Virus genome (UHGV): UHGV-1341775 | From: a virus | Length of the DNA: 15,929 nucleotides | Direction: 5' to 3' (one strand) | Shown: piece by piece, positions 3,348-14,321 of the stretch | Layout of the letters: the number at the start of each line of letters is the position of its first letter | Position numbering within the stretch: position 1 is the stretch's first letter | The notes under the pieces: generated by a model | The model's input: only the letters and a program-made list of their open reading frames with translations | The model's database searches: none | What the model was told of the DNA's origin: nothing | Position numbers and translations under genes: made by a program

Positions 3348-4001
3348 TTATTTCTTCGATGAATGCCACTTACTTTCGCTATTCCACTTCCCGGCACGAG
3401 AGAAGAATAGATCGTTCTCGTTTCCAACATAGGATCGGTGGATACCATCGGAGGCATGACTTCGAGCGTTTTTATCTAGAACTTCCCAGATACTATTAAG
3501 CTGAAATTCTGATTCGTTTTTACACTCATCATCTTCATGTTCGATGTTAATACCGATGGAATCGACTACCCCACGGAAAACAGGGTAAGTGGTTTCAACC
3601 TTGCCCGTGTTGGGGTTAAGGAAAACCATCTCGATTTTCACATCAGATTTATCGAATTGCTTGTTTCGAATGAGAGTAATGTATTCTTCGCGAACGTTAG
3701 AAACGGTTACGTTAATCCCGTTGTTGTTGATCTCCTTCTCTTCGGTATTCGATGAGATTTGAAGGAAATCGCCCGTTGCGAGATACGTAAATCCGTTATA
3801 GTCCAAATCGAAATACCCATCTGTAAGCCGTAGAACATCCCCTGACGCGGTAATCACTTCGATAATGTGAAACATCGATCCAGTAGAGAAAAGCTGCGGT
3901 AGCGTCAATCTAGACACGTTCTGACCTGTCTGGTCGTTGTATACCTCAATGAAGTCAAGATTAGTGCATAGTTTGCTGAATGATTCCTGAATAGTTGCCA
4001 T
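3348..4001 (-). CDS. Minor tail / tail-tip protein (position of lambda gpL; family not confirmed)
   Basis: ORF 3348..4055 trimmed to the ATG at 4001..3999, which overlaps the upstream stop (TAATG) and has GGAG about 8 nt upstream. The 217-aa product begins MATIQESFSKLCTNLDFIEVYNDQ.... The call rests on position in the tail-tip cluster after the tape measure gene. Confidence 0.5.
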   Translation of the reverse strand: MATIQESFSKLCTNLDFIEVYNDQTGQNVSRLTLPQLFSTGSMFHIIEVITASGDVLRLTDGYFDLDYNGFTYLATGDFLQISSNTEEKEINNNGINVTVSNVREEYITLIRNKQFDKSDVKIEMVFLNPNTGKVETTYPVFRGVVDSIGINIEHEDDECKNESEFQLNSIWEVLDKNARSHASDGIHRSYVGNENDLFFSRAGKWNSESKWHSSKK

Positions 4002-4576
4002 TATACATTCTCCACTAATTCGAATTTCATCTTGCCAATCTGGGCGATCTTCCAATCGATATTTTCAGTTTTGAGAACAAATTCACCTTCTACGTTCTGA
4101 TACTTGATCACCTCACCCGCCAGGACGTTCTGACGCAAGTTAGGGAAGAGTTTCATTTCACCGCCTGATTTCACGTCTTCGGTGATCGTGTAGATTTTCT
4201 TGTGGTTCTCAAACTGGATGACAGTTCCCGCTTTCAGTGTTCCGGTGAAGTTGGAGATTCTCACCTTACGCCCACCGCGAGCAGTACCAGCAGCAGCCGT
4301 TACCATCTGGCGTACATCACCTGTATATTTTGAAAAGTAAGACAGTGGCACACTAAAAGGACGACCAAAAAGGTGACGTGCTACAAATTCTTTTACTTCG
4401 TTAATATCCTGAGCCATGTAATTCGCGGTAAATTCTGCTTCGTAAAAATGGATGCCAGTAAAGCGACGCTGGAACTTACCGGAGATAGATTGCGCCTTGA
4501 AGAAAGGTTGTTTTGATTTAAGAGTAAAATCTGTGATTTTAATATTCTTGGATTTGAACATAGAAAAAGCCCCCAT
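4001..4576 (-). CDS. Minor tail protein immediately after tape measure (distal tail protein / gpM-position candidate)
   Basis: ORF 4001..4597 (GTG start in the track) trimmed to the first ATG at 4576..4574, giving MGAFSMFKSKNIKITDF... (191 aa). An alternative ATG at 4561 lies just after a U-tract. The call rests on position between the tape measure and tip proteins; I do not recognise the family from the sequence. Confidence 0.45.
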   Translation of the reverse strand: MGAFSMFKSKNIKITDFTLKSKQPFFKAQSISGKFQRRFTGIHFYEAEFTANYMAQDINEVKEFVARHLFGRPFSVPLSYFSKYTGDVRQMVTAAAGTARGGRKVRISNFTGTLKAGTVIQFENHKKIYTITEDVKSGGEMKLFPNLRQNVLAGEVIKYQNVEGEFVLKTENIDWKIAQIGKMKFELVENV

Positions 4577-4607
4577 AGTTTTATGATTATTTATCACTAT
4601 GAGGGCT
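4564..4607 (-). terminator. Stem-loop with U-tract between the tape measure and the next gene (possible intrinsic terminator or attenuator, or a start-codon-sequestering hairpin)
   Basis: Minus-strand RNA reads AAAAGCCCUCAUAG-(18-nt AU-rich loop)-CUAUGGGGGCUUUUU. This gives a 10-11 bp stem with one G-U pair, flanked by an A-run 5' and a U5 run 3'. The 3' arm contains the ATG at 4576. Confidence 0.4.
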
Positions 4608-4612
4608 TTTAA

Positions 4613-7042
4613 TTACATCTTACGACGCTGTGCGTCTTCTACCGCCTGAGCAACTAACTTAGCGTGACGTTTGATAGCATCCATGACCATCTTGTCTGAG
4701 CTATTAACGTTGCCGTTAATGTTCAAAGGCGCATTAACTTCAATCGGCTGAGAGTTACCACCGCCTGATTTTTGAGCAGATAAGAAGTCTTTCAAATCAC
4801 CGTTAGTACGCTGATCAACTACTCGTTCACCCTTATCAAGCAACCATGTACCCTCACGAGGGATGTTATCAATACCATCATGAGCCATACCGCTAACGTT
4901 AGTAGACTTGATGTTTGCGATGTTCCCCATGTTCTGAGAAACAGCCAATGCAGCAGCAGCGATTTTTTGACCTGTGGTTACGTTGGTCGGATCGTTCCAT
5001 GCATCGGTAGCAGCCGTCCACATGTTCACCGTCGCTTGTCCGATAGAGAATGCTTTATGAGCATTGAAAGCCATCTGCATAGCTTTAGTGTTTTCCTGCC
5101 CGAAGAGAGTCATTGCAGCAGCAAAACCGCCGTACATATCATCGGCTATTGACTGGCGAGCATCAGCATATTTCTTCTCAATTGCAGCCATTCGTTTTTG
5201 ATGGTTTTCATTGAGTTTTTCTAATGCTTCCATCCGTTTAGCCGGATCGGTGATCCCATCAATCTTGAGTTTATCGGTTTTATAATCTTGTTCGGCTTCC
5301 GATTTCTCTTTATCGATTGCATTAAATTTAGCAAACGGGTTATTTGAGTCTTGATAGTCTAAGCTATTGGTCAACTGATTGGTTTTAAAACCATCCATTC
5401 CATGCAAAGAATCTTCAATCTGTGAATAACTTTGTTCGGTATCATTCACACGACGCATATATTCTTCGTAGGAGATAGCCTTACCATCAAGTAACCGTTT
5501 ATGGCTTTCTAACTCATTGTCCCTGATTTGTTGCAATTGTGTTAAGGCATTCAAAGCATCAACCGGATCAGCACCTAAAACCATTTTGTATACGTTTTCA
5601 GTATTCTGATCGATTAATGATTGGCGTTTCGCGGCTGCGTCTTGCTGAGAGATTAAGCCCAGATCTAAAGCAGTGTCCAAATCTTTCAAACTGGATTCTA
5701 ATTGCTTGTTTTGAGAAGCAATAGACGCGGCGACTTGCCCTTGCAATTTAACATCAAGTGCATTCAGTCGCTTGATTGCATCCTCGCGTGCTTTCTGTGC
5801 TTTTTCTGCGGCTTCCTTAGCCTTTTTAGCTGCCTCTTCCGCTTTCTTTTTGGCTTCTTCCTCGGCTTTCTTCTCGTTGCCAGACTTACCCAATGAAGCT
5901 GGTCGAGTTGGTGTAGTCGGGATAGTCAAATCACGGTTAGGATCTGCCTTGCGGGTTAGATGTTCCCCGTTATCGACAACAATCAGAGAGCCATTTTTCT
6001 TATAAGAATCACCAAAACGTTTCTTAAATCCTTCTACATCAAAGCCAGCAGTACGAGGATCGACACCAGCACCACGGATCGCGGCCTTTTCCCAATCTGC
6101 CAGATTATTCCAACGCTTTTCTTTATTGTACTTGTCAATAATTTTTTGAGCGTCTTTATGGTTGGCGTTAAGAATACCACCAGTTGCGGTCTTGCCTTCT
6201 TTATTCAGTCGATCTAATGCCCTGAATAGAGAACTCTTTTCCCAATCAATATTAAACCAGTCAAATAACCAGTTTAAGCTATCAACCAAAGGACCAGTAA
6301 TGGTCATGCCGACACCTTTCAGGTTATTTTCCAGCTTATTAATATTTTGAGAAAATTTATCATATTTTTTAGCGTTTTCTTCGGTGACGCTAACAGATTG
6401 ATTCTGAATAGCGATCATCGCCTCTTGAGCACTATTATATTTCTCAAGCTGGCTGGTCATATGGCTTGAATCACTGGCTAAAGATTCCATCATGAACTTG
6501 ATTTCAGCCATTGATTTTCCGGCTTTCTTCATGTCATAGAACACTTGGATCGCCGCTTTCATACCACCTTGCGGATCAGTCATGAAGTGAGCATAGTTTT
6601 CTAACTTAAGGCCAACCGATTCTAAGTCATCAGCAATACCACCACCGTTAGCCCACGCATCACCCATCTTATCTAAGGTGTCTTTGTTGATATCACCGAA
6701 TTTTTCAACTGTTAGGCCAGTACCAGAAAATTCCTTTTCCAGTCTTTGAAGGGATTCAATCGAGAGTCCGGTCGCCTTAGATACTTCTGAATATTGTTTA
6801 ACGTATTCCGCGCCAGCTTTAGCGGCTGCAACCACTGCGGTCGCAACTAAGCCGATACCACCAGCAGCCAAACCAGCAGAGCCAGCGATCCCACGAAGAG
6901 ATCCAGTCAGACCAGATAAGCCACCACCAAAATCAATATTACTTGCCTTTTCAGACAAACTATCGAGAAGGTCGGCGGCTTCATTGGTACTTCTCCTTAG
7001 ACCTTTATTATCCCCTTCTATTGTTACTATATGTCTTGTCAT
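4613..7042 (-). CDS. Tail tape measure protein
   Basis: The 809-aa ORF is the second-longest gene in the tail module and sits directly after two small chaperone ORFs. It has a long Lys/Glu/Ala-rich coiled-coil region (KKAEEEAKKKAEEAAKKAKEAAEKAQKAREDAIKRL) and Gly/Ala-rich hydrophobic stretches near both ends (GIAGSAGLAAGGIGLVATAVVAAAKAG; GQKIAAAALAV). The ATG at 7042 is preceded by GGGG. Confidence 0.8.
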   Translation of the reverse strand: MTRHIVTIEGDNKGLRRSTNEAADLLDSLSEKASNIDFGGGLSGLTGSLRGIAGSAGLAAGGIGLVATAVVAAAKAGAEYVKQYSEVSKATGLSIESLQRLEKEFSGTGLTVEKFGDINKDTLDKMGDAWANGGGIADDLESVGLKLENYAHFMTDPQGGMKAAIQVFYDMKKAGKSMAEIKFMMESLASDSSHMTSQLEKYNSAQEAMIAIQNQSVSVTEENAKKYDKFSQNINKLENNLKGVGMTITGPLVDSLNWLFDWFNIDWEKSSLFRALDRLNKEGKTATGGILNANHKDAQKIIDKYNKEKRWNNLADWEKAAIRGAGVDPRTAGFDVEGFKKRFGDSYKKNGSLIVVDNGEHLTRKADPNRDLTIPTTPTRPASLGKSGNEKKAEEEAKKKAEEAAKKAKEAAEKAQKAREDAIKRLNALDVKLQGQVAASIASQNKQLESSLKDLDTALDLGLISQQDAAAKRQSLIDQNTENVYKMVLGADPVDALNALTQLQQIRDNELESHKRLLDGKAISYEEYMRRVNDTEQSYSQIEDSLHGMDGFKTNQLTNSLDYQDSNNPFAKFNAIDKEKSEAEQDYKTDKLKIDGITDPAKRMEALEKLNENHQKRMAAIEKKYADARQSIADDMYGGFAAAMTLFGQENTKAMQMAFNAHKAFSIGQATVNMWTAATDAWNDPTNVTTGQKIAAAALAVSQNMGNIANIKSTNVSGMAHDGIDNIPREGTWLLDKGERVVDQRTNGDLKDFLSAQKSGGGNSQPIEVNAPLNINGNVNSSDKMVMDAIKRHAKLVAQAVEDAQRRKM

Positions 7043-7045
7043 AAA

Positions 7046-7396
7046 TTACCCCGTTTGTGCGCTTCTGAGTTTCTCAAGCAAAGATGGATCGAACATGCTC
7101 AATGTTGCAGCTTTACGTTCTTCTTCTTTCTTGCGTGCAAGTTCTTCCAGTTCTTCTTTAGTTTTAAAGAGTTTTTCTTCTCTAATTAATTGGAATTGGC
7201 TAGGCTTGAGTTTACGTGCAGTTTCACGAGTCATTCCTTGTGACGTCATATACATGGAATATTGCAACATCGCATTCTGCATATCATGAAACGCGGGGCT
7301 TTGTGGTTCTAAGTAGGTGTCGAAAATGTATAATTTCCAAAACAGAGTGATTGGCATATTATCCATTTCATCTTTACTAAGCCCCGATCGCATCAT
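7046..7396 (-). CDS. Tail assembly chaperone, second ORF of the pair (lambda gpT-position; possibly made as a frameshift fusion)
   Basis: 116-aa ORF between the first chaperone and the tape measure gene. It lacks a recognisable Shine-Dalgarno motif. Its frame is the -1 frame of the upstream ORF and is open for 15 nt before that ORF's stop. Confidence 0.5.
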   Translation of the reverse strand: MMRSGLSKDEMDNMPITLFWKLYIFDTYLEPQSPAFHDMQNAMLQYSMYMTSQGMTRETARKLKPSQFQLIREEKLFKTKEELEELARKKEEERKAATLSMFDPSLLEKLRSAQTG

Positions 7397-7425: not shown

Positions 7426-7734
7426 TTACTTTACCTCGTTTTCAATTACTGCCGGATCTTGCATCAATGATGCTTGAGCAACCAAACCGATTAATTCACT
7501 TCGAACGTTAGTATACAGTGCCTTAACTTGTTCCATAGATTCAAATACTGGCTTACCGTCTTCATCTTCAATACAACGAAGAATAGAGCGTTCATCACGG
7601 TCTTCTTTATCAGTATTGAAAACATGTTCATTAAATTCTTTTACTGACATAGGGCGAGCATAGAAAGTGAATCCACCGATGGTCAAAGATTCGCGTTTCG
7701 GAGAGAGTGCGGCTAACATTTCGTTAATATTCAT
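7426..7734 (-). CDS. Tail assembly chaperone, first ORF of the pair (lambda gpG-position)
   Basis: 102-aa acidic ORF directly downstream of the tube protein gene and its terminator. It has a strong Shine-Dalgarno motif (AAGAGGAAA) and ends ...GTA AAG TAA. Confidence 0.55.
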   Translation of the reverse strand: MNINEMLAALSPKRESLTIGGFTFYARPMSVKEFNEHVFNTDKEDRDERSILRCIEDEDGKPVFESMEQVKALYTNVRSELIGLVAQASLMQDPAVIENEVK

Positions 7735-7779: not shown

Positions 7780-7808
7780 AAACAAAAAAGCCACCCCGAA
7801 GGATGGCT
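7780..7808 (-). terminator. Rho-independent terminator after tube protein A
   Basis: Minus-strand RNA reads AGCCAUCC-UUCG-GGGUGGCU followed by UUUUUUGUUU. This is an 8-bp GC-rich stem with a UUCG tetraloop and a U-tract, 9 nt after the stop of the 7817..8287 gene. Confidence 0.75.
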
Positions 7809-7816
7809 AGAGAATA

Positions 7817-8287
7817 TTAGAGAGTCTGGAAAACAGCTTGTTTAACCGGAGCACCATCTACTACAAAGGTGAAGGTACGGCCTACTACCGCATCCTCACC
7901 ACCAGTCATGGTAGTTTTAGACAGGAAGCCGTTATAAGCGATATGTACACCAGATTTTTTCGTAGCATCGATGTAGTAAGCAATTTTAAGCTGTACGCGC
8001 TTACCGTCTTCGGTTGCTTTAATCAGTTTTTCGTGTACTTCGTTACCCGGCATGTAGTTGATCGAAAGTTCGATATCCGGTACAGACATACGACCAACCA
8101 GCTTGCGGTTATAAGCACCAGAGAAGTTTGGAACATCGATAGTAGAACGTTCCACACCAGTTTCCGGGAAAGCCGCACATTCTGGAATTTCCAGATAGGT
8201 TTCAGCATCAAGGTCTTTATTGTTTACGTCTTCTTGCAGAAACAGACCAACGAGGCCACCAGAGAAAATATCAAATTTAGTAGTCAT
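7817..8287 (-). CDS. Tail tube (major tail) protein, short paralog A
   Basis: 156-aa ORF with AAGGA 8 nt upstream of the ATG, followed by a strong terminator and then the chaperone pair and tape measure gene, which is the canonical major-tail-protein position. It shares motifs with the 277-aa protein at 13056..13889 (FDIFSGG vs LDIFTGS; ECAAFPETGVERSTIDV vs ENIAAFPTITESTDIQT; KATEDGKRVQLKIAYY vs KAVEDKTPLRFRMFYV). Confidence 0.55.
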   Translation of the reverse strand: MTTKFDIFSGGLVGLFLQEDVNNKDLDAETYLEIPECAAFPETGVERSTIDVPNFSGAYNRKLVGRMSVPDIELSINYMPGNEVHEKLIKATEDGKRVQLKIAYYIDATKKSGVHIAYNGFLSKTTMTGGEDAVVGRTFTFVVDGAPVKQAVFQTL

Positions 8288-8341
8288 TATTCTTTTCCTT
8301 CTATTTTAAACAATAGGGCACATACCCGTAATTCTATTTAT

Positions 8342-8644
8342 TTAGCGGTTGCTCAAACGTCTATAACGAAGATGAGCGACCCCCCTATTTGTGCTAACGG
8401 TAATTACCGCCCCTTGCGGTGCAATACAAGAATGGATCTGTCCCCAATCATAACCCTTATGACTTCCAGACACACAAAAGCCATGCAAAAGCAATTCTGA
8501 GTCACCACCACCACCACCAGAAGAATGAGCACCAAATGAAACCGTACCGAAAGCGTCGGCTGTCCAACCGTTAGGAATATCAAACCATCCCTGATTCGCT
8601 TTACCGGCTTTATTGTCTAAAACGCCATACACCCAATATCCCAT
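8342..8644 (-). CDS. Glycine-rich small protein, paralog 3 of a tandem triplet (function unknown)
   Basis: 100-aa ORF MGYWVYGVLDNKAGKANQGWFDIPNGWTADAFGTVSF...GGGGGD...AVITVS.... Its ATG overlaps the upstream stop (TAATG) and AGGAG lies about 9 nt upstream. Confidence 0.6.
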   Translation of the reverse strand: MGYWVYGVLDNKAGKANQGWFDIPNGWTADAFGTVSFGAHSSGGGGGDSELLLHGFCVSGSHKGYDWGQIHSCIAPQGAVITVSTNRGVAHLRYRRLSNR

Positions 8645-8949
8645 TAATGCATTCTCCTAAATTGGAAGTGGTTTAAACTTCCTTTACCAATGCTAAAACT
8701 GACAGTAGCGCCAACACCAACTAAAGAACTAGCTCCCCAACTTCCGGCTTTACCAGCGTGATGACCTGATTCGAGAGTACCGTTTACATATAATTCGGCG
8801 TCCAAGTCACCTCCACCGCCAACGGCTTCGGCATGAACAGACACAATACCGCATGAATCAGTAACCCAACCATTAGGGATACCAAACCAGCCGCCATTAG
8901 CATAAATGCTAATAGCATTAGCCATTCTTCCAGCAACCCAACCAGCCAT
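8644..8949 (-). CDS. Glycine-rich small protein, paralog 2 of a tandem triplet (function unknown)
   Basis: 101-aa ORF MAGWVAGRMANAISIYANGGWFGIPNGWVTDSCGIVSVH...GGGGD...ATVSFS.... It starts 2 nt after the upstream stop, with GGAG upstream. Confidence 0.6.
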   Translation of the reverse strand: MAGWVAGRMANAISIYANGGWFGIPNGWVTDSCGIVSVHAEAVGGGGDLDAELYVNGTLESGHHAGKAGSWGASSLVGVGATVSFSIGKGSLNHFQFRRMH

Positions 8950-8951
8950 AA

Positions 8952-9248
8952 TTAAAACTCCATAAATTTAAAGTATTCAATACCACCGACACCCCCATGA
9001 CCAAAGGTGACAGTACATCCAGCAGGAACAAACGCATTAACCGTAAATCCCCAATCCCCACCACCACGACGACGCGCGGCGACCACACCGTCAACGGAAA
9101 TATGCATATCGCCCCAACCATCATTAGCAGTATGCCGCAAAACGGCAACACCAGCACGTCCGGGAACATATCCATTAGGAATATCAAAAACATGCCATTT
9201 TACAGCATCTATTTTAGTGCCTTGTTCATTACTTACCCAATAGCCCAT
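8952..9248 (-). CDS. Glycine-rich small protein, paralog 1 of a tandem triplet (function unknown)
   Basis: 98-aa ORF MGYWVSNEQGTKIDAVKWHVFDIPNGYVPGRAGVAVLRH...RRGGGDWG...CTVTFGHGGVGG.... AAGGA lies 7 nt upstream of the ATG, and the gene sits 38 nt downstream of the fibre gene. Confidence 0.6.
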   Translation of the reverse strand: MGYWVSNEQGTKIDAVKWHVFDIPNGYVPGRAGVAVLRHTANDGWGDMHISVDGVVAARRRGGGDWGFTVNAFVPAGCTVTFGHGGVGGIEYFKFMEF

Positions 9249-9260
9249 TTAAAATCCTTA

Positions 9261-9278
9261 GCGGGGATTTCTCCCCGC
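9261..9278 (-). other. Short GNRA-loop hairpin between the fibre gene and the first glycine-rich paralog
   Basis: Minus-strand RNA reads GCGGGGA-GAAA-UCCCCGC, a 7-bp stem with a GAAA tetraloop, followed by UAAGGAUUUUAAAUG. The U-tract is weak, so this is more likely an RNA-stability or processing element than an efficient terminator. Confidence 0.35.
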
Positions 9279-9286
9279 CATTTAAA

Positions 9287-12200
9287 TTAACCAAATAATT
9301 TTGCTTCAATTGCAGCAAGACGATCGTGAAGAATTTTATTTTCTTCTTTCAGACGGTTATTTTCTTCTTTAAGAAGTGCAATTTCTTCGGTGTGTTCGTT
9401 GATTGCCGCAGTATTTAAACCAATAACACCGTTATAGTTCAAACGAAGAAGGTTTTCGCTATCTGGATCGCCTTCAACCAATTCCGGCAAAATAGCTTGA
9501 ACTTCCTGAGCAATCAAACCAGCATTAGGCTCCCACCGTTCGCTACCGTCTTCATTTAATCCTCGCTTTTGAAGGTACATATATCCGTTAATTTTTGAAA
9601 GTGTCTGTGATGCATTTTCAAATTTAACTAAATCCTTCTTCACGCGAATATCAGAACGGATATAAATGTCACGAACATATGTCGAATAGTTGTCATTCGC
9701 CTGGACTAGATGACCATGAGAGATAATAGCTTTATCAACTTCTGTCCATAAAGCACCGTGAGTTCCCCATAGTCCAGGATGTTCTTGATACATCGCACTC
9801 CATGATGCAATATGCTGTCCGTTTGCCATCAAGTTAATACGTCCATCACCACCATGAGCTAAACCAGTATCATTATCACCAATAGCAATTGATGCACCTC
9901 CCCAAACAGGAACCGTACCAACACCAAGTCTAGGAGTTTGAATAAAAGGGCTATAAAACATTCCGCTAGCATGAAACTCAAATACCCCTTGTGGATGGTT
10001 TTCGCCTGGTGTAGCTTCCGCAGAACCAACACGAATAACAGCTTGTCCCCATGCTCCCGGAGTACGACGTAAGCCAAAGTCAGCCTTAGTAGAATAACCT
10101 TGACCTGCGATCTGGCTATGTCCTTTAATAAGTGGATAATAGCTATCTTCTCCAACACTACCCTGATCAATAAAGATAGGTGCTTCTTCGCGCCACTGTC
10201 CATCCCATGCACCGGAATGATTAGCAACCCACTGTGTAGCGTTGATATAGATACGGTCTTTGCTAATACTAACATTATTAAAATTTTGTGGCGCAAGTGC
10301 TATCTCACCATTATCTGTGAGATGAACAGCCGCATTAGTCTTATAACTACAAAAAACTAATCCATTACCAGCACCACCTTTACCGATATACCAGTTATCT
10401 ACATCGTTACAAGTACCTTTCACATAAACAGCATCAGAATCAGTAGGAGCATTAACGGTAATAACGTTAGATTCACCATTGACTTTAAATCTTCCGAAGA
10501 ATGTATTTTGAATGGTGTTATCACCTTTACGCTCAAATTCTGCTAAAAATCCTTTTGAGTCACGAAGACTTAAAACGTTATTTCGACCTACATTGCTTGC
10601 CCCCCAATGAACAAATTCTAAGTAGTCCATTGATTGACGAGAACCAGCTTTAAAGAAAAGATTGTCCTCAAGACGAGTGCTACCATCAATTCCAAGATGC
10701 AAACAACGAGCGGTTTCAGTACCACCCAAATATAATCCACCGTCCGCAAAATCATAACTGAATGGTCTGCGATTATTCCAAGTACCAAAAGAATCTTTTA
10801 AATCGGTAGTAAGAATGTGGAAGCTAGAACCATCATTGCGTAATATCAAACCATAGTTACCGCCTCTAACAGCCAAACGAGCATTTTCAGATAATGCAAC
10901 TTCGCTATTCATTACAATTTTCTGGCCTCTACCGCCAGAAATCTGTAATTCACCGTTTTCGACCAAGTTTATCGAGTTTTGACCGTTATCGTTCCACCAA
11001 ATAAAATCTTTGGTCTGACCATCACCGAAACCAAACCAGCCATTACGAACATCTTGACCAGTGCGATAATCCATAAAATTAAAATGGCTTGATTCGTTTG
11101 GTCCTCGACGAATATCAATACCAGAATTTCCAGTGACACCGCCATCCAATGTTAATTTCTTGACATGTAACCCGGATGTTGCTGTCAGCAATAATTCCTG
11201 ATTTGTATCTTCGTATCCAGTAGCAAGACGATACTGGTTATCATCAACTGTCTCATGCCAGATAGTGGCAGGACCAGAACTACGGAAGCGACGCAACATC
11301 TTTTTGCTGTTAGTTTGTTGCACGTTCAAATGCTCAATGTCATATTGGCCTTGAGGGTTTCCAGCAAAATTTAACGTTCCACGGTTACTGAAACTGTTAA
11401 AGGAGTATATTGTATATGCATCATAGATATGATCAGCTACAGGTTTTTCGCCGACATATTCAGGTCGATCAAGTACAGTTAAATTAACATCGCTGGACGC
11501 TTGATATTCAACTAAAACAAGTGAAGTATGTTGGGAATATTGAGCATATATATCATAATTATCGCCGCTTGTATTAATGGCACAAAATTGGTTGTCATAT
11601 CCAGATATATGATGATATGCGACAATATTAATTCCTTTAGGGGCATTGTTGCCAGTCCTTATAACAAGTTCAATAATATTACATTGTCCCGTTTGGCCTA
11701 CGTTCCACCCATTACCACCAACCAATCTAATTTTAGCACTACGACCGTAGTTTTGTGGTAGATATACTGTAGCGATTTTAAACCATCCACTTTCAGAACC
11801 AAAATCGATGGTCTTCTGGAACATCCGGTCAATTTCTGCTTTCGAATATGCGCCAATTTCAGCCGGAGTAGGTTTATCACCTTCATGATACATGCGGTGA
11901 GAATATGCCAAATGTCCCAATTCATCATAGCCGTATGTTTTTACAGTCGGAACAACATTAGAACCATATGTAAAATCAAAACCGCGAGAATGATTTAGAC
12001 CGCTAGGATGTGGCACATGCAAAGCTAATGCCAAATGACCCGCCAGGTCATTCATGCGGAATGCACCAAAGTAGTCAAGATTGCGCGCATTTGGATCATC
12101 AAAATAGTTTGCGGTCTTAGATAGCAAATAGCCATCAGTGTAAGTGTTTACGTGCTTTTTGATGTACTTACCATCACTTGATCCATCGGCTGCATCAATA

Positions 12201-12982
12201 CGGCTTTCTAAGCGTGCCAATTCAGAATCAGTGTAAGACTTGTTATTGTCAACTTTGCTATGAATTGCTGTATTTTTGGCTTCAACATCACGGGTTAATG
12301 CTGCGACGTTATCCGCTGCCTCTTGCTTATTGGCTGCAATCACACCAGTAAGGTTATTGTAGGTGTCAGTTAACTGATTTTCCGCATAGGCTTTATTTGC
12401 TGCGATAGTCCGATCAGTTTCTGCCTTAATCAAATCAACCTTGTCATTGATTGCTTTGTCATTGCTTGCGATGGTTGCATCGGTACGGGATTTAATATCA
12501 TCAACTTTTTTATTGATGCGGGTGTCCAGTTCCTGAGTTGCTACAGCAGCCGCATTTTTATTAGCGTTGATGGTATCCGACAATTCAGCTTTAACACCAG
12601 CAAGATCGGAAGCAGCTTTATTTTTATTGGCCTCGATTGTCGCGTCGGTTTCGCGTTTAATTACATCAACTTTATTGTTAATTTCTGCGTGATTTGCTGC
12701 GATGGTTGCATCAGTAGTTTGTTTAATTTCATCTACTTTAGCGTGAATATTGCGGTCATTTACTGCAATTGTGCTATCCAGTTCTTGTTTGTTAGCATCA
12801 ACTTTAGATTCTAGTGCCGCGTGAGTTTCAGGAGAAACAGAGATTTGAACTACTTCATGATCTCGGTCTTTGGTAAAAATAACATGGTCTTTAAGGTTGA
12901 TTGCTACCTCACCGACCTGTAATTGTTCCGGCGTTGGTTTTTTGCCAGAAACATTAGTTCGTTTAAATTGGATCGACTGCAT
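9287..12982 (-). CDS. Side tail fibre / tailspike-like protein with C-terminal intramolecular chaperone (peptidase S74-type) domain
   Basis: 1231-aa ORF with GAGGTGA upstream of the ATG at 12982. Residues 60-255 form a repeat array (KVDxIKxxTDATIAAN units). The central region is rich in Gly/Trp/Asn, consistent with a beta-rich domain. The last 121 aa (about 9290..9652) match the self-cleaving chaperone domain pattern: predicted cleavage Ser|Asp in ...IYIRS|DIRVKKDL..., then AGLIAQEVQAILPELV, LNYNGVIGLNTAAINE and a terminal coiled coil (EENNRLKEENKILHDRLAAIEAKL). Confidence 0.75.
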   Translation of the reverse strand: MQSIQFKRTNVSGKKPTPEQLQVGEVAINLKDHVIFTKDRDHEVVQISVSPETHAALESKVDANKQELDSTIAVNDRNIHAKVDEIKQTTDATIAANHAEINNKVDVIKRETDATIEANKNKAASDLAGVKAELSDTINANKNAAAVATQELDTRINKKVDDIKSRTDATIASNDKAINDKVDLIKAETDRTIAANKAYAENQLTDTYNNLTGVIAANKQEAADNVAALTRDVEAKNTAIHSKVDNNKSYTDSELARLESRIDAADGSSDGKYIKKHVNTYTDGYLLSKTANYFDDPNARNLDYFGAFRMNDLAGHLALALHVPHPSGLNHSRGFDFTYGSNVVPTVKTYGYDELGHLAYSHRMYHEGDKPTPAEIGAYSKAEIDRMFQKTIDFGSESGWFKIATVYLPQNYGRSAKIRLVGGNGWNVGQTGQCNIIELVIRTGNNAPKGINIVAYHHISGYDNQFCAINTSGDNYDIYAQYSQHTSLVLVEYQASSDVNLTVLDRPEYVGEKPVADHIYDAYTIYSFNSFSNRGTLNFAGNPQGQYDIEHLNVQQTNSKKMLRRFRSSGPATIWHETVDDNQYRLATGYEDTNQELLLTATSGLHVKKLTLDGGVTGNSGIDIRRGPNESSHFNFMDYRTGQDVRNGWFGFGDGQTKDFIWWNDNGQNSINLVENGELQISGGRGQKIVMNSEVALSENARLAVRGGNYGLILRNDGSSFHILTTDLKDSFGTWNNRRPFSYDFADGGLYLGGTETARCLHLGIDGSTRLEDNLFFKAGSRQSMDYLEFVHWGASNVGRNNVLSLRDSKGFLAEFERKGDNTIQNTFFGRFKVNGESNVITVNAPTDSDAVYVKGTCNDVDNWYIGKGGAGNGLVFCSYKTNAAVHLTDNGEIALAPQNFNNVSISKDRIYINATQWVANHSGAWDGQWREEAPIFIDQGSVGEDSYYPLIKGHSQIAGQGYSTKADFGLRRTPGAWGQAVIRVGSAEATPGENHPQGVFEFHASGMFYSPFIQTPRLGVGTVPVWGGASIAIGDNDTGLAHGGDGRINLMANGQHIASWSAMYQEHPGLWGTHGALWTEVDKAIISHGHLVQANDNYSTYVRDIYIRSDIRVKKDLVKFENASQTLSKINGYMYLQKRGLNEDGSERWEPNAGLIAQEVQAILPELVEGDPDSENLLRLNYNGVIGLNTAAINEHTEEIALLKEENNRLKEENKILHDRLAAIEAKLFG
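12217..12805 (-). repeat. In-frame tandem coding repeats (about 21-aa units) in the N-terminal shaft of the side fibre
   Basis: Protein-level repeats TDATIAAN / TDATIEAN / SDTINAN / TDATIASN / TDRTIAAN spaced about 20-21 residues apart. Matching nucleotide repeats are visible, e.g. ttgcttgcgatggttgcatc at about 12463 and ttgctgcgatggttgcatc at about 12694. Confidence 0.55.
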
Positions 12983-12994
12983 CGAATCACCTCA

Positions 12995-13029
12995 CTATAA
13001 AACAGGAATAAGGGAGGCGTTAACCTCCC
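12995..13029 (-). terminator. Probable intrinsic terminator after tube-like gene B
   Basis: Minus-strand RNA reads GGGAGG-UUAACG-CCUCCC, a 6-bp GC stem, followed by the U-rich stretch UUAUUCCUGUUUUAU. It lies 27 nt after the stop of 13056..13889 and just before the fibre gene's Shine-Dalgarno motif. Confidence 0.5.
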
Positions 13030-13055
13030 GCGTCATGTTTTATTTAGAGAAGCAA

Positions 13056-13889
13056 TCAGTATTCCCCGAAGTCGATCCGGTCATGGATAGAAACGGCTTC
13101 AATCTCGGCTGGTGTCGGTTTTTCTTCCGTGGAATACACTTTCACCCATCCAGAATTACCATCTTTCTGGACTGTGCGAACTCGTAAACGAGGTGCACCG
13201 GAAGCGGTGCAAGTTAATTGCCATCCACCATCTTCATTAGGTTGAACGTGAATTAGTGAAGTATCAGCACTAAATGGATTAGATGCGCTCGATCCCTGAT
13301 AGGTCACAAAACGGTTGCCAGTCAGTGATTCACTATCAATCGGACCAGTGAATGGATGTACACCAGCACCCAAACCAAAATCACCTTGACGTAAGATCTT
13401 ACCTTCGGTTGCAATACCACGGTCGAGAATCCCACCATCAGGATCTAATTTAAATTCGATGGTAGTAACTTTGTTATCGCTACCACGGGTTTTGTGTGAT
13501 GTGACGTATGCATCAAAAATGACGTAGTATCCTGTGTTAGCAGCACTATAGCCAGAGTTCACAACATAGAACATACGGAAGCGTAAAGGTGTTTTATCCT
13601 CTACCGCTTTCATCAACATTGCTTGATGTTCATCATCCAGAACACGGTTTACTGTGAGTGTTGTTGATTCAAGTTTACGATAGCCAGCCAACTTACCAGT
13701 AACATCATGGTCATATTCTTCTAACGTCTGGATATCTGTAGATTCGGTTATCGTCGGGAATGCTGCGATGTTCTCGATAGGACTAAATGCAGGATCGAAA
13801 AAGTCCGGCTGGTTATCCACCATAGTAGACACGGAAACTTCAACATGCGACCCCGTGAAAATGTCTAAGTTATCTTGTGTAATATTCAT
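13056..13889 (-). CDS. Tail-tube-like protein B (major-tail-protein paralog) with C-terminal extension, possibly an Ig-like decoration domain
   Basis: 277-aa ORF with a strong Shine-Dalgarno motif (AAGGGG, TAAGGGGTAATAATG). The N-terminal 150 aa or so align by motif with the 156-aa tube protein at 7817..8287. The C-terminal extension of about 120 aa ends ...EEKPTPAEIEAVSIHDRIDFGEY, resembling a segment of the fibre (DKPTPAEIGAYSKAEIDRMFQKTIDFGSE). Confidence 0.5.
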   Translation of the reverse strand: MNITQDNLDIFTGSHVEVSVSTMVDNQPDFFDPAFSPIENIAAFPTITESTDIQTLEEYDHDVTGKLAGYRKLESTTLTVNRVLDDEHQAMLMKAVEDKTPLRFRMFYVVNSGYSAANTGYYVIFDAYVTSHKTRGSDNKVTTIEFKLDPDGGILDRGIATEGKILRQGDFGLGAGVHPFTGPIDSESLTGNRFVTYQGSSASNPFSADTSLIHVQPNEDGGWQLTCTASGAPRLRVRTVQKDGNSGWVKVYSTEEKPTPAEIEAVSIHDRIDFGEY

Positions 13890-13898
13890 TATTACCCC

Positions 13899-14321
13899 TT
13901 AAAAACGCGCTACATAAGAAAATTTAAGGCTAAGTGTCCCAACGATACCACCATCACTAGAATCATCGTCATAATCGGTATTAGAAGCTACTGGAGTGAT
14001 GTCTGAAATTGAGAAGCCCAAATCTTTAAAACGTGGGTTATCCGGCTGAATCTGGATTATCTGGCAAATACCCTCATGAATTTTGGTTTCATGAATCTGA
14101 GAATATAATTGCATTTCGATAACGCATTCAGCTTGCATTGCATTACCACCACGAACACGCGTGTAAGTCTCATTCATTCCGGTGATCCAACAAACCACGT
14201 CATCACTAAAGCCTTGCTGAGTTTGTTCTACGTTTAAAGCCAGACCTAAATCTTGTTCGATAATATCTTGCAAGGCGCGTTTGATTTTCAGTCTAGGCAT
14301 ATTATTAACGGTAGCGAGCAT
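13899..14321 (-). CDS. Head-tail joining / neck protein candidate (tail terminator or completion position)
   Basis: ORF 13899..14369 trimmed to the ATG at 14321, which is preceded by AGGGGG at 5-6 nt and overlaps the upstream gene's end by 17 nt. The 140-aa product lies between the capsid gene and the tube-like gene. Assignment is by position only. Confidence 0.4.
   Translation of the reverse strand: MLATVNNMPRLKIKRALQDIIEQDLGLALNVEQTQQGFSDDVVCWITGMNETYTRVRGGNAMQAECVIEMQLYSQIHETKIHEGICQIIQIQPDNPRFKDLGFSISDITPVASNTDYDDDSSDGGIVGTLSLKFSYVARF

Follow-up and report, generated by a model that had tools for sequence, protein, structure and literature searches.

A tail-tube paralogue with a fibre-type extension as candidate side-fibre anchor in a family of enterobacterial prophages

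Two tube-type genes around a fibre module

The virus genome UHGV-1341775 was analysed here over a stretch of 15,929 nucleotides (nt), referred to as the window, in which two genes for proteins of the tail-tube type flank a fibre module. This work deals with the relationship of the two proteins, of 156 and 277 amino acids (aa), and with the probable part of the longer one in fixing the side fibre to the tail. All genes of the finding are on the minus strand, including both tube-type open reading frames, at 7817..8287 (156 aa) and 13056..13889 (277 aa). The 277-aa protein, called the anchor in this work, is composed of a tube-fold N-domain (approximately residues 1-162, nt 13404-13889) and a fibre-type junction domain (approximately residues 163-277). 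The two genes are about 4.8 kb apart and, as the first-pass annotation of the sequence had it, the interval holds a fibre of 1231 aa (9287..12982; Pfam Gp34_trimer, gp37_trimer and Peptidase_S74; PHROG 1699) and a triplet of glycine-rich paralogues of about 100 aa each (8342..9248). Upstream of the anchor is the gene of a 140-aa protein with terminator fold, the tail terminator (13899..14321), whose stop codon is 9 nt ahead of the anchor start.

The two tube-type genes are separate, anciently duplicated paralogues. In a single BLASTP comparison the 156-aa protein aligned to residues 7-159 of the 277-aa protein with 20% identity over 153 aa (E=6e-9), and the four motif pairs on which the paralogy had been proposed, such as FDIFSGG/LDIFTGS, are all in register in this alignment. 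Both proteins match PHROG 158 "major tail protein", the 156-aa protein at 6e-20 and the 277-aa protein at 6.7e-9. The profile of the anchor N-domain family aligns to that of the tube orthologues with 99.7% probability (E=2e-25) over 154 columns and without large gaps. The 277-aa protein has the tube fold, a beta-sandwich with a long hairpin; its N-domain retains this hairpin and the DIF.G and AFP motifs of the tube protein, and the strongest structural matches of the domain are true tube proteins and not distal tail proteins or hubs. The Pfam models for tail tube proteins gave no match with the 277-aa protein and a weak, sub-threshold one (Phage_TTP_12/11) with the 156-aa protein. Scans of Pfam and NCBIfam with the 277-aa protein were empty, and its family profile found chance matches only among the sequences of the PDB.

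Six tube proteins and as many anchor domains were placed in a neighbour-joining tree, which split the two groups in 199 of 200 bootstraps. This dates the duplication before the spread of this phage lineage and before the six relatives described below. In the same tree of twelve sequences the anchors have evolved faster than the tube proteins.

The C-terminal extension and its proposed counterpart on the fibre

Residues 163-277 of the anchor contain the conserved series GDFG.GAG ... GN.F ... NP ... W.KVY..EKPT and end in IDFGEY. This extension resembles residues 300-395 of the neighbouring fibre (E=3e-4). Its last 28 residues, KVYSTEEKPTPAEIEAVSIHDRIDFGEY-COOH (13059..13142, minus strand), the proposed socket for docking of the next fibre segment, are 46% identical (E=3e-5) to the last 28 residues of a gp36-family protein of Krischvirus G37-3, in an alignment which runs to the final residue of both proteins and gives the common end KPTPAE..IDFG.Y/F-COOH. 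The Krischvirus partner is a protein of 496 aa, encoded just upstream of gp37 and matching Pfam PF03903 (Phage_T4_gp36). The terminal motif [IVM]D[FL]G.[YFE] is kept in all homologues of the split type, even after 200-900 aa of inserted fibre repeats, and the long family member P0099 itself matches PF03903. A search of the PDB with the profile of the junction domain gave one weak match (E 0.027), to the C-terminal W..V[FY]T..PTAA.IGA motif of T4-type gp34, and the Pfam search with the same domain gave nothing consistent.

The first-pass annotation had put forward, for the extension, the model of an immunoglobulin-like (Ig-like) C-terminus. This identity was rejected, since no Ig or FN3 domain was matched in the Pfam scan of the 277-aa protein and the extension resembles fibre segments and the C-terminus of the gp36 family instead. 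The sequence is best read as that of a probable fibre stub ending in a joint of the gp36 type.

The proposed partner on the fibre is a gp37-type N-terminal plug (residues 1-45, nt 12848-12982, minus strand). The fibre starts with MQSIQFKRTNVSGKKPTPEQLQVGEVAINLKDHVIFTKD, and the same N-terminal motif opens the gp37 of Krischvirus G37-3. In the relatives, every fibre gene that follows an anchor opens with a gp37-type IQFKRT..KPT..GE.AINL.D..IFTKD sequence. After the plug the fibre continues with a repeat-rich, probably helical spacer up to about residue 270, a gp37-like body and an S74 intramolecular chaperone. With the fibre N-terminus as query the PDB gave nothing but chance matches to designed trefoils, and no solved gp36-gp37 joint was found.

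Gene order and modular fibres in six relatives

Six relatives were examined: DCP80, Escherichia coli CUVET21-37 (L002), L003, a Proteus prophage (L005), L008 and a locus from Pantoea (L009), two of the six being metagenome contigs. The order terminator, tube-domain protein, fibre or fibres and tube protein is kept in all six, so that the fibre lies between the two tube-type genes in each, being fused to the tube domain in two. The fused proteins, of 885 aa in L008 and 1351 aa in L009, combine a tube domain and a whole fibre in one chain; they end in Phage_tail_C_2, gp37_trimer or S74 domains, and their genes lie precisely in the interval from the gene in terminator position to the tube gene. 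The first-pass annotation had also considered insertion of the fibre module between the copies of a duplicated tube gene. A recent insertion of the whole module into a fresh duplication was rejected on the basis of the conserved order and of the 199/200 split; only the distal fibre and the triplet appear to be recent.

In the Proteus mirabilis prophage L005 (10001-13516) the fibre is a chain of three genes. The first encodes a 275-aa anchor ending in IDFGEF, the second a repeat-rich, probably helical spacer of 198 aa with a plug at its start and an MDFGTF socket at its end, and the third a gp37-like fibre of 675 aa, again with a plug at its start. The 1231-aa fibre of the window corresponds to the second and third of these pieces fused. 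Comparison of the three-piece chain with the fused E. coli fibre indicates that the joints behave as modular connectors. In L003 it is the true tube protein which bears a weak Ig-like tail.

DCP80 (L001/L011, GenBank PQ671644.1) is filed as a Gaprivervirus of 141 kb. From 1 to about 23 kb it holds a full head and tail module, lambda-like in the head and of siphophage type in the tail; T-even genes come after this module, and rIIA is present twice, in opposite orientation. The record seems to be a chimera in which an induced prophage and a T-even phage were assembled together.

Identification of the major tube protein

The first-pass annotation had regarded the question which copy forms the tube as not decidable from sequence. 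Two lines of data favour the 156-aa protein. Its gene is directly upstream of the chaperones and the tape measure, while the 277-aa gene is 4.8 kb further upstream and adjoins the terminator gene. Codon adaptation indices (CAI) were calculated with weights after the Sharp-Li E. coli table and are to be trusted for their ranking only. The 156-aa gene reached 0.62 and the capsid gene 0.68, and all other genes of the window had 0.25-0.40, among them the anchor (0.33), the terminator (0.35) and the distal tail protein (0.40). Tube and capsid proteins rank top in five relatives as well, with the anchor below the tube protein in all and a narrow margin of tube over anchor domain in L008 and L009. 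Because of the position of its gene beside chaperones and tape measure and of its high codon adaptation, the 156-aa protein is, on these sequence criteria, the major tail tube protein. Taking CAI as a proxy, by which the 277-aa gene resembles those of the six-copy tail proteins, we infer that its product is made at low copy. Within one operon, the tube and capsid genes stand out from the rest by a sharp expression-level signature.

Strong Shine-Dalgarno motifs and stem-loop terminators had been proposed for both genes as the signature of abundant structural proteins. Purine-rich Shine-Dalgarno-like stretches are present ahead of both starts (AAGGAAAAG and AAGGGG). A stable hairpin follows both genes, but a clean U-tract follows the 156-aa gene only. 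There, an intrinsic terminator (7789..7808, minus strand) has an 8-bp stem and then UUUUUUGUUU, with a folding energy of -13.4 kcal/mol. The hairpin after the anchor gene (13012..13029, minus strand) has a GGGAGG..CCUCCC stem without a clean U-tract; it is contained in a fold of -22.5 kcal/mol over a 66-nt stretch, and UUAUUCCUGUUUUAU comes next. The capsid and fibre genes have 3' hairpins as well, and within this set clean U-tracts are found only at the hairpins of the capsid and 156-aa genes. As to abundance, the CAI values fit such a signature for the 156-aa protein (0.62) and not for the 277-aa protein (0.33).

These data bear on the idea that the 277-aa protein co-polymerises with the 156-aa protein along the tail, in the style of SPP1 gp17.1* or lambda gpV, with the extension decorating the tube or carrying fibres at many positions. 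The DIF.G and AFP motifs and the long C-terminal hairpin shared with the tube protein, which suggest tube-type contacts, would fit such a co-polymer, as would the hairpin 3' of the 277-aa gene. We consider it improbable all the same: the codon adaptation is that of a minor protein and below that of the tube protein in five relatives, the extension is fibre-like and not Ig-like, and the 700-1400 aa of complete fibre fused in relatives would be hard to fit on every ring. The 277-aa gene is, moreover, tightly coupled to that of the six-copy terminator, the gap between terminator and anchor genes being 0-9 nt at every locus compared.

A further reading is that the 277-aa protein itself terminates the tail, or belongs to the neck in some other role, with an appendage that would give collar whiskers. 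Its gene lies between head-completion genes and the tube gene, the usual place of terminators, and terminators have a distant fold kinship with tube proteins. The terminator-like role, one of the options originally listed for the two copies, was rejected, since the adjacent 140-aa protein has the terminator fold. The neck reading is thereby largely refuted as far as the terminator role is concerned and appears very improbable; a ring directly under the terminator would in any case be a variant of the fibre-anchor reading developed below. The 277-aa protein was also considered as distal tail protein and rejected, a distal tail protein being present after the tape measure (PHROG 1302, 1.5e-16).

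Remaining genes of the window and prophage setting

Upstream of the terminator the window carries, on the minus strand as all genes of this section, the C-terminal part of a protease-capsid fusion (15866-14745; Pfam Phage_capsid 1e-27) and a 96-aa protein with a weak FII-like match (14595-14305). Downstream of the tube gene are a tail assembly chaperone (7426-7734) and a gpT-like protein (7046-7396), followed by the 809-aa tape measure (4613-7042), the distal tail protein (4001-4597), a hub protein, a DUF6950 protein and the start of a tail-tip protein. The part of this tail core from the chaperone to the distal tail protein matches PHROG 344, PHROG 13674, PHROG 1302 and, weakly, Pfam Phage_tail_T. 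The canonical tail set of terminator, tube protein, chaperones, tape measure, distal tail protein and hub is thus complete without the 277-aa protein. No Pfam, PHROG or NCBIfam model recognises members of the 140-aa terminator family. A weak match below the threshold connects the distal tail protein with the B (OB-fold) domain of T5 pb9. This adds a second faint resemblance to T5 in a tail whose tip is otherwise similar to those of gene transfer agents or phiJL001 (DUF6950, Phage_Tail_Tip).

A survey of 5426 complete E. coli genomes found prophages with 93-96% identity to the window in 59. In E. coli CUVET21-37 (NZ_CP115351.1, 2793322-2829390) the prophage is about 36 kb long and is located between a truncated ycdX and the ycdY-side genes; it has a large recombinase-family gene at one end and a GIY-YIG nuclease inside. 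PGAP has annotated the two tube-type proteins of this strain as "phage tail tube protein" (156 aa) and "hypothetical" (277 aa). In other E. coli strains with this prophage the tail region is broken by insertion sequence elements.

Probable exchange of the distal fibre with T-even phages

Nucleotides 9287-12119 of the fibre gene are 82-88% identical to T-even phages, Krischvirus among them. The T-even-like stretch comprises positions 8326-12119 of the window, that is the distal two thirds of the fibre and the three glycine-rich genes, and has its left junction within a conserved domain of the fibre, at about residue 288. No other part of the window had a nucleotide match in the phage collection. 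By this measure the distal fibre and the triplet alone are a recent import from T-even phages, and the nucleotide identity points to a cassette that a temperate siphophage and virulent myophages have recently exchanged.

The glycine-rich paralogues are 98-101 aa long, share 25-31% identity among themselves and carry the motifs GW.DIPNGW ... GGGGD. They gave no Pfam match and a single weak PHROG match. Krischvirus G37-3 has three one-to-one counterparts of these genes, between gp37 and the holin, the position at which other T-even phages encode gp38. The glycine-rich proteins could be fibre-tip adhesins or assembly factors.

A wider family of fibres with a tube-fold N-domain

The N-domain profile was searched against 1.84 billion representative proteins with a cut-off of E 1e-3, and matches were clustered at 50% identity. 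It matched 149 clusters, 110 of which are proteins of 400-1563 aa, and in most of these long proteins the match starts within the first 40 residues. The GDFG.G junction motif was found at approximately residue 155-175 in 83 of the 117 proteins longer than 210 aa. Seven out of nine members scanned end in fibre domains (S74 intramolecular chaperone, gp37_trimer, T4 gp36 or Phage_tail_C_2), and about fifteen members end in an IDFG-type socket as the 277-aa protein of the window does. Named members come from E. coli, Salmonella, Shigella, Serratia, Pantoea, Rahnella, Leclercia, Yersinia, Providencia, Edwardsiella, Proteus and Buttiauxella, and their existing labels are "hypothetical" or "tail fiber". 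A pattern scan of genome contigs gave one locus only, in Buttiauxella.

The composition of the family has to be considered together with a further possibility, namely that the tube-fold domain is placed off the tail axis, either as a platform outside the tip or neck, or as a scaffold or chaperone that acts in assembly and is absent from the virion. In most members the domain is covalently joined to a complete fibre and must therefore stay with the fibre in the virion, and its strongest structural matches, as reported above, are to true tube proteins. To our knowledge all rings of the tube fold in long tails are on the tail axis. An off-axis position is unlikely on these grounds, if somewhat less so than co-polymerisation along the tube.

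Discussion

The interpretation that best accounts for these data, with a probability of roughly two in three, is that the 156-aa protein is the tube and the 277-aa protein an old paralogue which has turned into the tail-attachment piece of a side fibre and ends in a gp36-type joint. From the sequence comparisons we infer that the 277-aa protein enters the tail as a ring and docks the fibre physically, together with its copy number and its position along the tail, as follows. The retained tube motifs and long hairpin suggest tube-type contacts and a ring on the tail axis, and the tube-fold domain of the 277-aa protein would accordingly assemble as a low-copy ring, or as part of one, in line with the tube. 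The extension would project outward from this ring, and the C-terminal socket would bind the plug of the 1231-aa fibre as gp37 joins gp36 in the long tail fibres of T-even phages. Fibre docking had been among the options first listed for the extended copy, and it agrees with the fibre-type extension and the conserved linkage to a fibre. By virtue of the shared joint, the distal receptor-binding part and its glycine-rich companions may be swapped with virulent T-even phages.

As to its position along the tail, a ring beside the distal tail protein, by analogy with T5, would take slightly more than half of the probability given to the ring model. A head-proximal ring beside the terminator is possible, because the anchor gene is tightly coupled to the terminator gene.

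Several points weigh against this interpretation. The 277-aa protein reaches no Pfam model, PF03903 included, and the gp36 likeness of its joint is a short motif of 28 aa. The AlphaFold2 model of its C-terminal domain has a predicted local distance difference test score (pLDDT) below 50 and is unreliable. The codon adaptation data, as said, count as a ranking. A six-fold ring and trimeric fibres have no simple mapping, and the 277-aa gene adjoins the terminator gene, unlike that of T5 p140, which is found with the baseplate genes. Among 50,697 GenBank phage records, tblastn searches with the anchor and with the fused-fibre N-terminus found the family in DCP80 only.

The nearest analogue of the 277-aa protein is T5 p140, a tube-protein duplicate which forms one ring between tube and distal tail protein and supports the side-fibre collar (PMC10038345). 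Like the anchor it is a tube-protein paralogue encoded in addition to the bona fide tube protein. It differs in having two tube domains per chain, in being a trimer and in having no extension, whereas the 277-aa protein has one tube domain with a covalent fibre stub or, in relatives, a whole fibre. In T5 the L-shaped fibres (pb1) are held via a separate collar, the Ig-like dodecameric p132, and here would be held by a covalent fibre-type extension; no p132-like collar family matched among the window proteins scanned, in scans which included no search aimed at p132. The authors of the T5 work state that other siphophages must anchor their fibres differently (PMC10038345).

The likeness to the gp36-gp37 joint of T-even phages extends to the C-terminal end of the 277-aa protein, the N-terminal motif of the fibre and the fibre body, which has 84-88% nucleotide identity to T-even gp37 genes. 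In T-even phages gp36 hangs from gp35/gp34 on the baseplate of a contractile tail, while in the window the joint would be placed directly on a tube-fold domain of a non-contractile tail. The lambda gpV Ig-like domain and the FN3 domain of SPP1 gp17.1* share with the anchor the combination of a tube-fold domain and an outward-facing extension. There the decoration is borne by the major subunit or by a frameshift variant of it, and here a separate paralogue of probably low expression bears a fibre-type extension. Further tube relatives are the T4 gp54/gp48 and Pvc5-type tube-initiator paralogues and Hcp with C-terminal effector extensions, none of which carries a receptor-binding fibre.

Three modes of side-fibre attachment in non-contractile tails and tailocins have been reported, with the shaft of the F-pyocin central fibre as a fourth (PMC13455828, 2026). 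The three are a galectin-domain loop of the distal tail protein in monocin, a dodecamer of Stf Ig-like N-termini surrounding the distal tail protein in Ur-lambda and the T5 collar (PMC13455828). All four share with the tail of the window the task of placing trimeric fibres on a six-fold tail, and none uses a tube-fold domain within the fibre protein. The tube-fold fibre anchor would be a fifth mode of side-fibre attachment. Tube-like anchors are not mentioned in the RBPseg work (PMC12143355). Literature searches on fibres with a tube fold or a tube paralogue returned the T5 p140 and F-pyocin papers, and no description of this architecture was found.

A broader statement, which we hold to be slightly better than an even chance, is that there is an enterobacterial prophage family of fibres built into the tail via their own tube-fold N-domain, of which the 277-aa protein is the minimal adaptor with a gp36-type socket, making gp37-type cassettes tradeable. 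The way in which side fibres are held on flexible tails has been worked out in only a handful of phages, no two solved cases being alike. If the interpretation is true, a tube-fold domain within the fibre would represent a simple solution to attachment without prior description in the literature searched. It would also explain how one prophage lineage takes up receptor-binding modules from unrelated lytic T-even phages, and would bear on the evolution of host range and on fibre engineering by swapping of cassettes at a defined joint. The analysis also provides a functional label for at least 110 sequence clusters which are now "hypothetical" or "tail fiber", and for the family of the 140-aa terminator.

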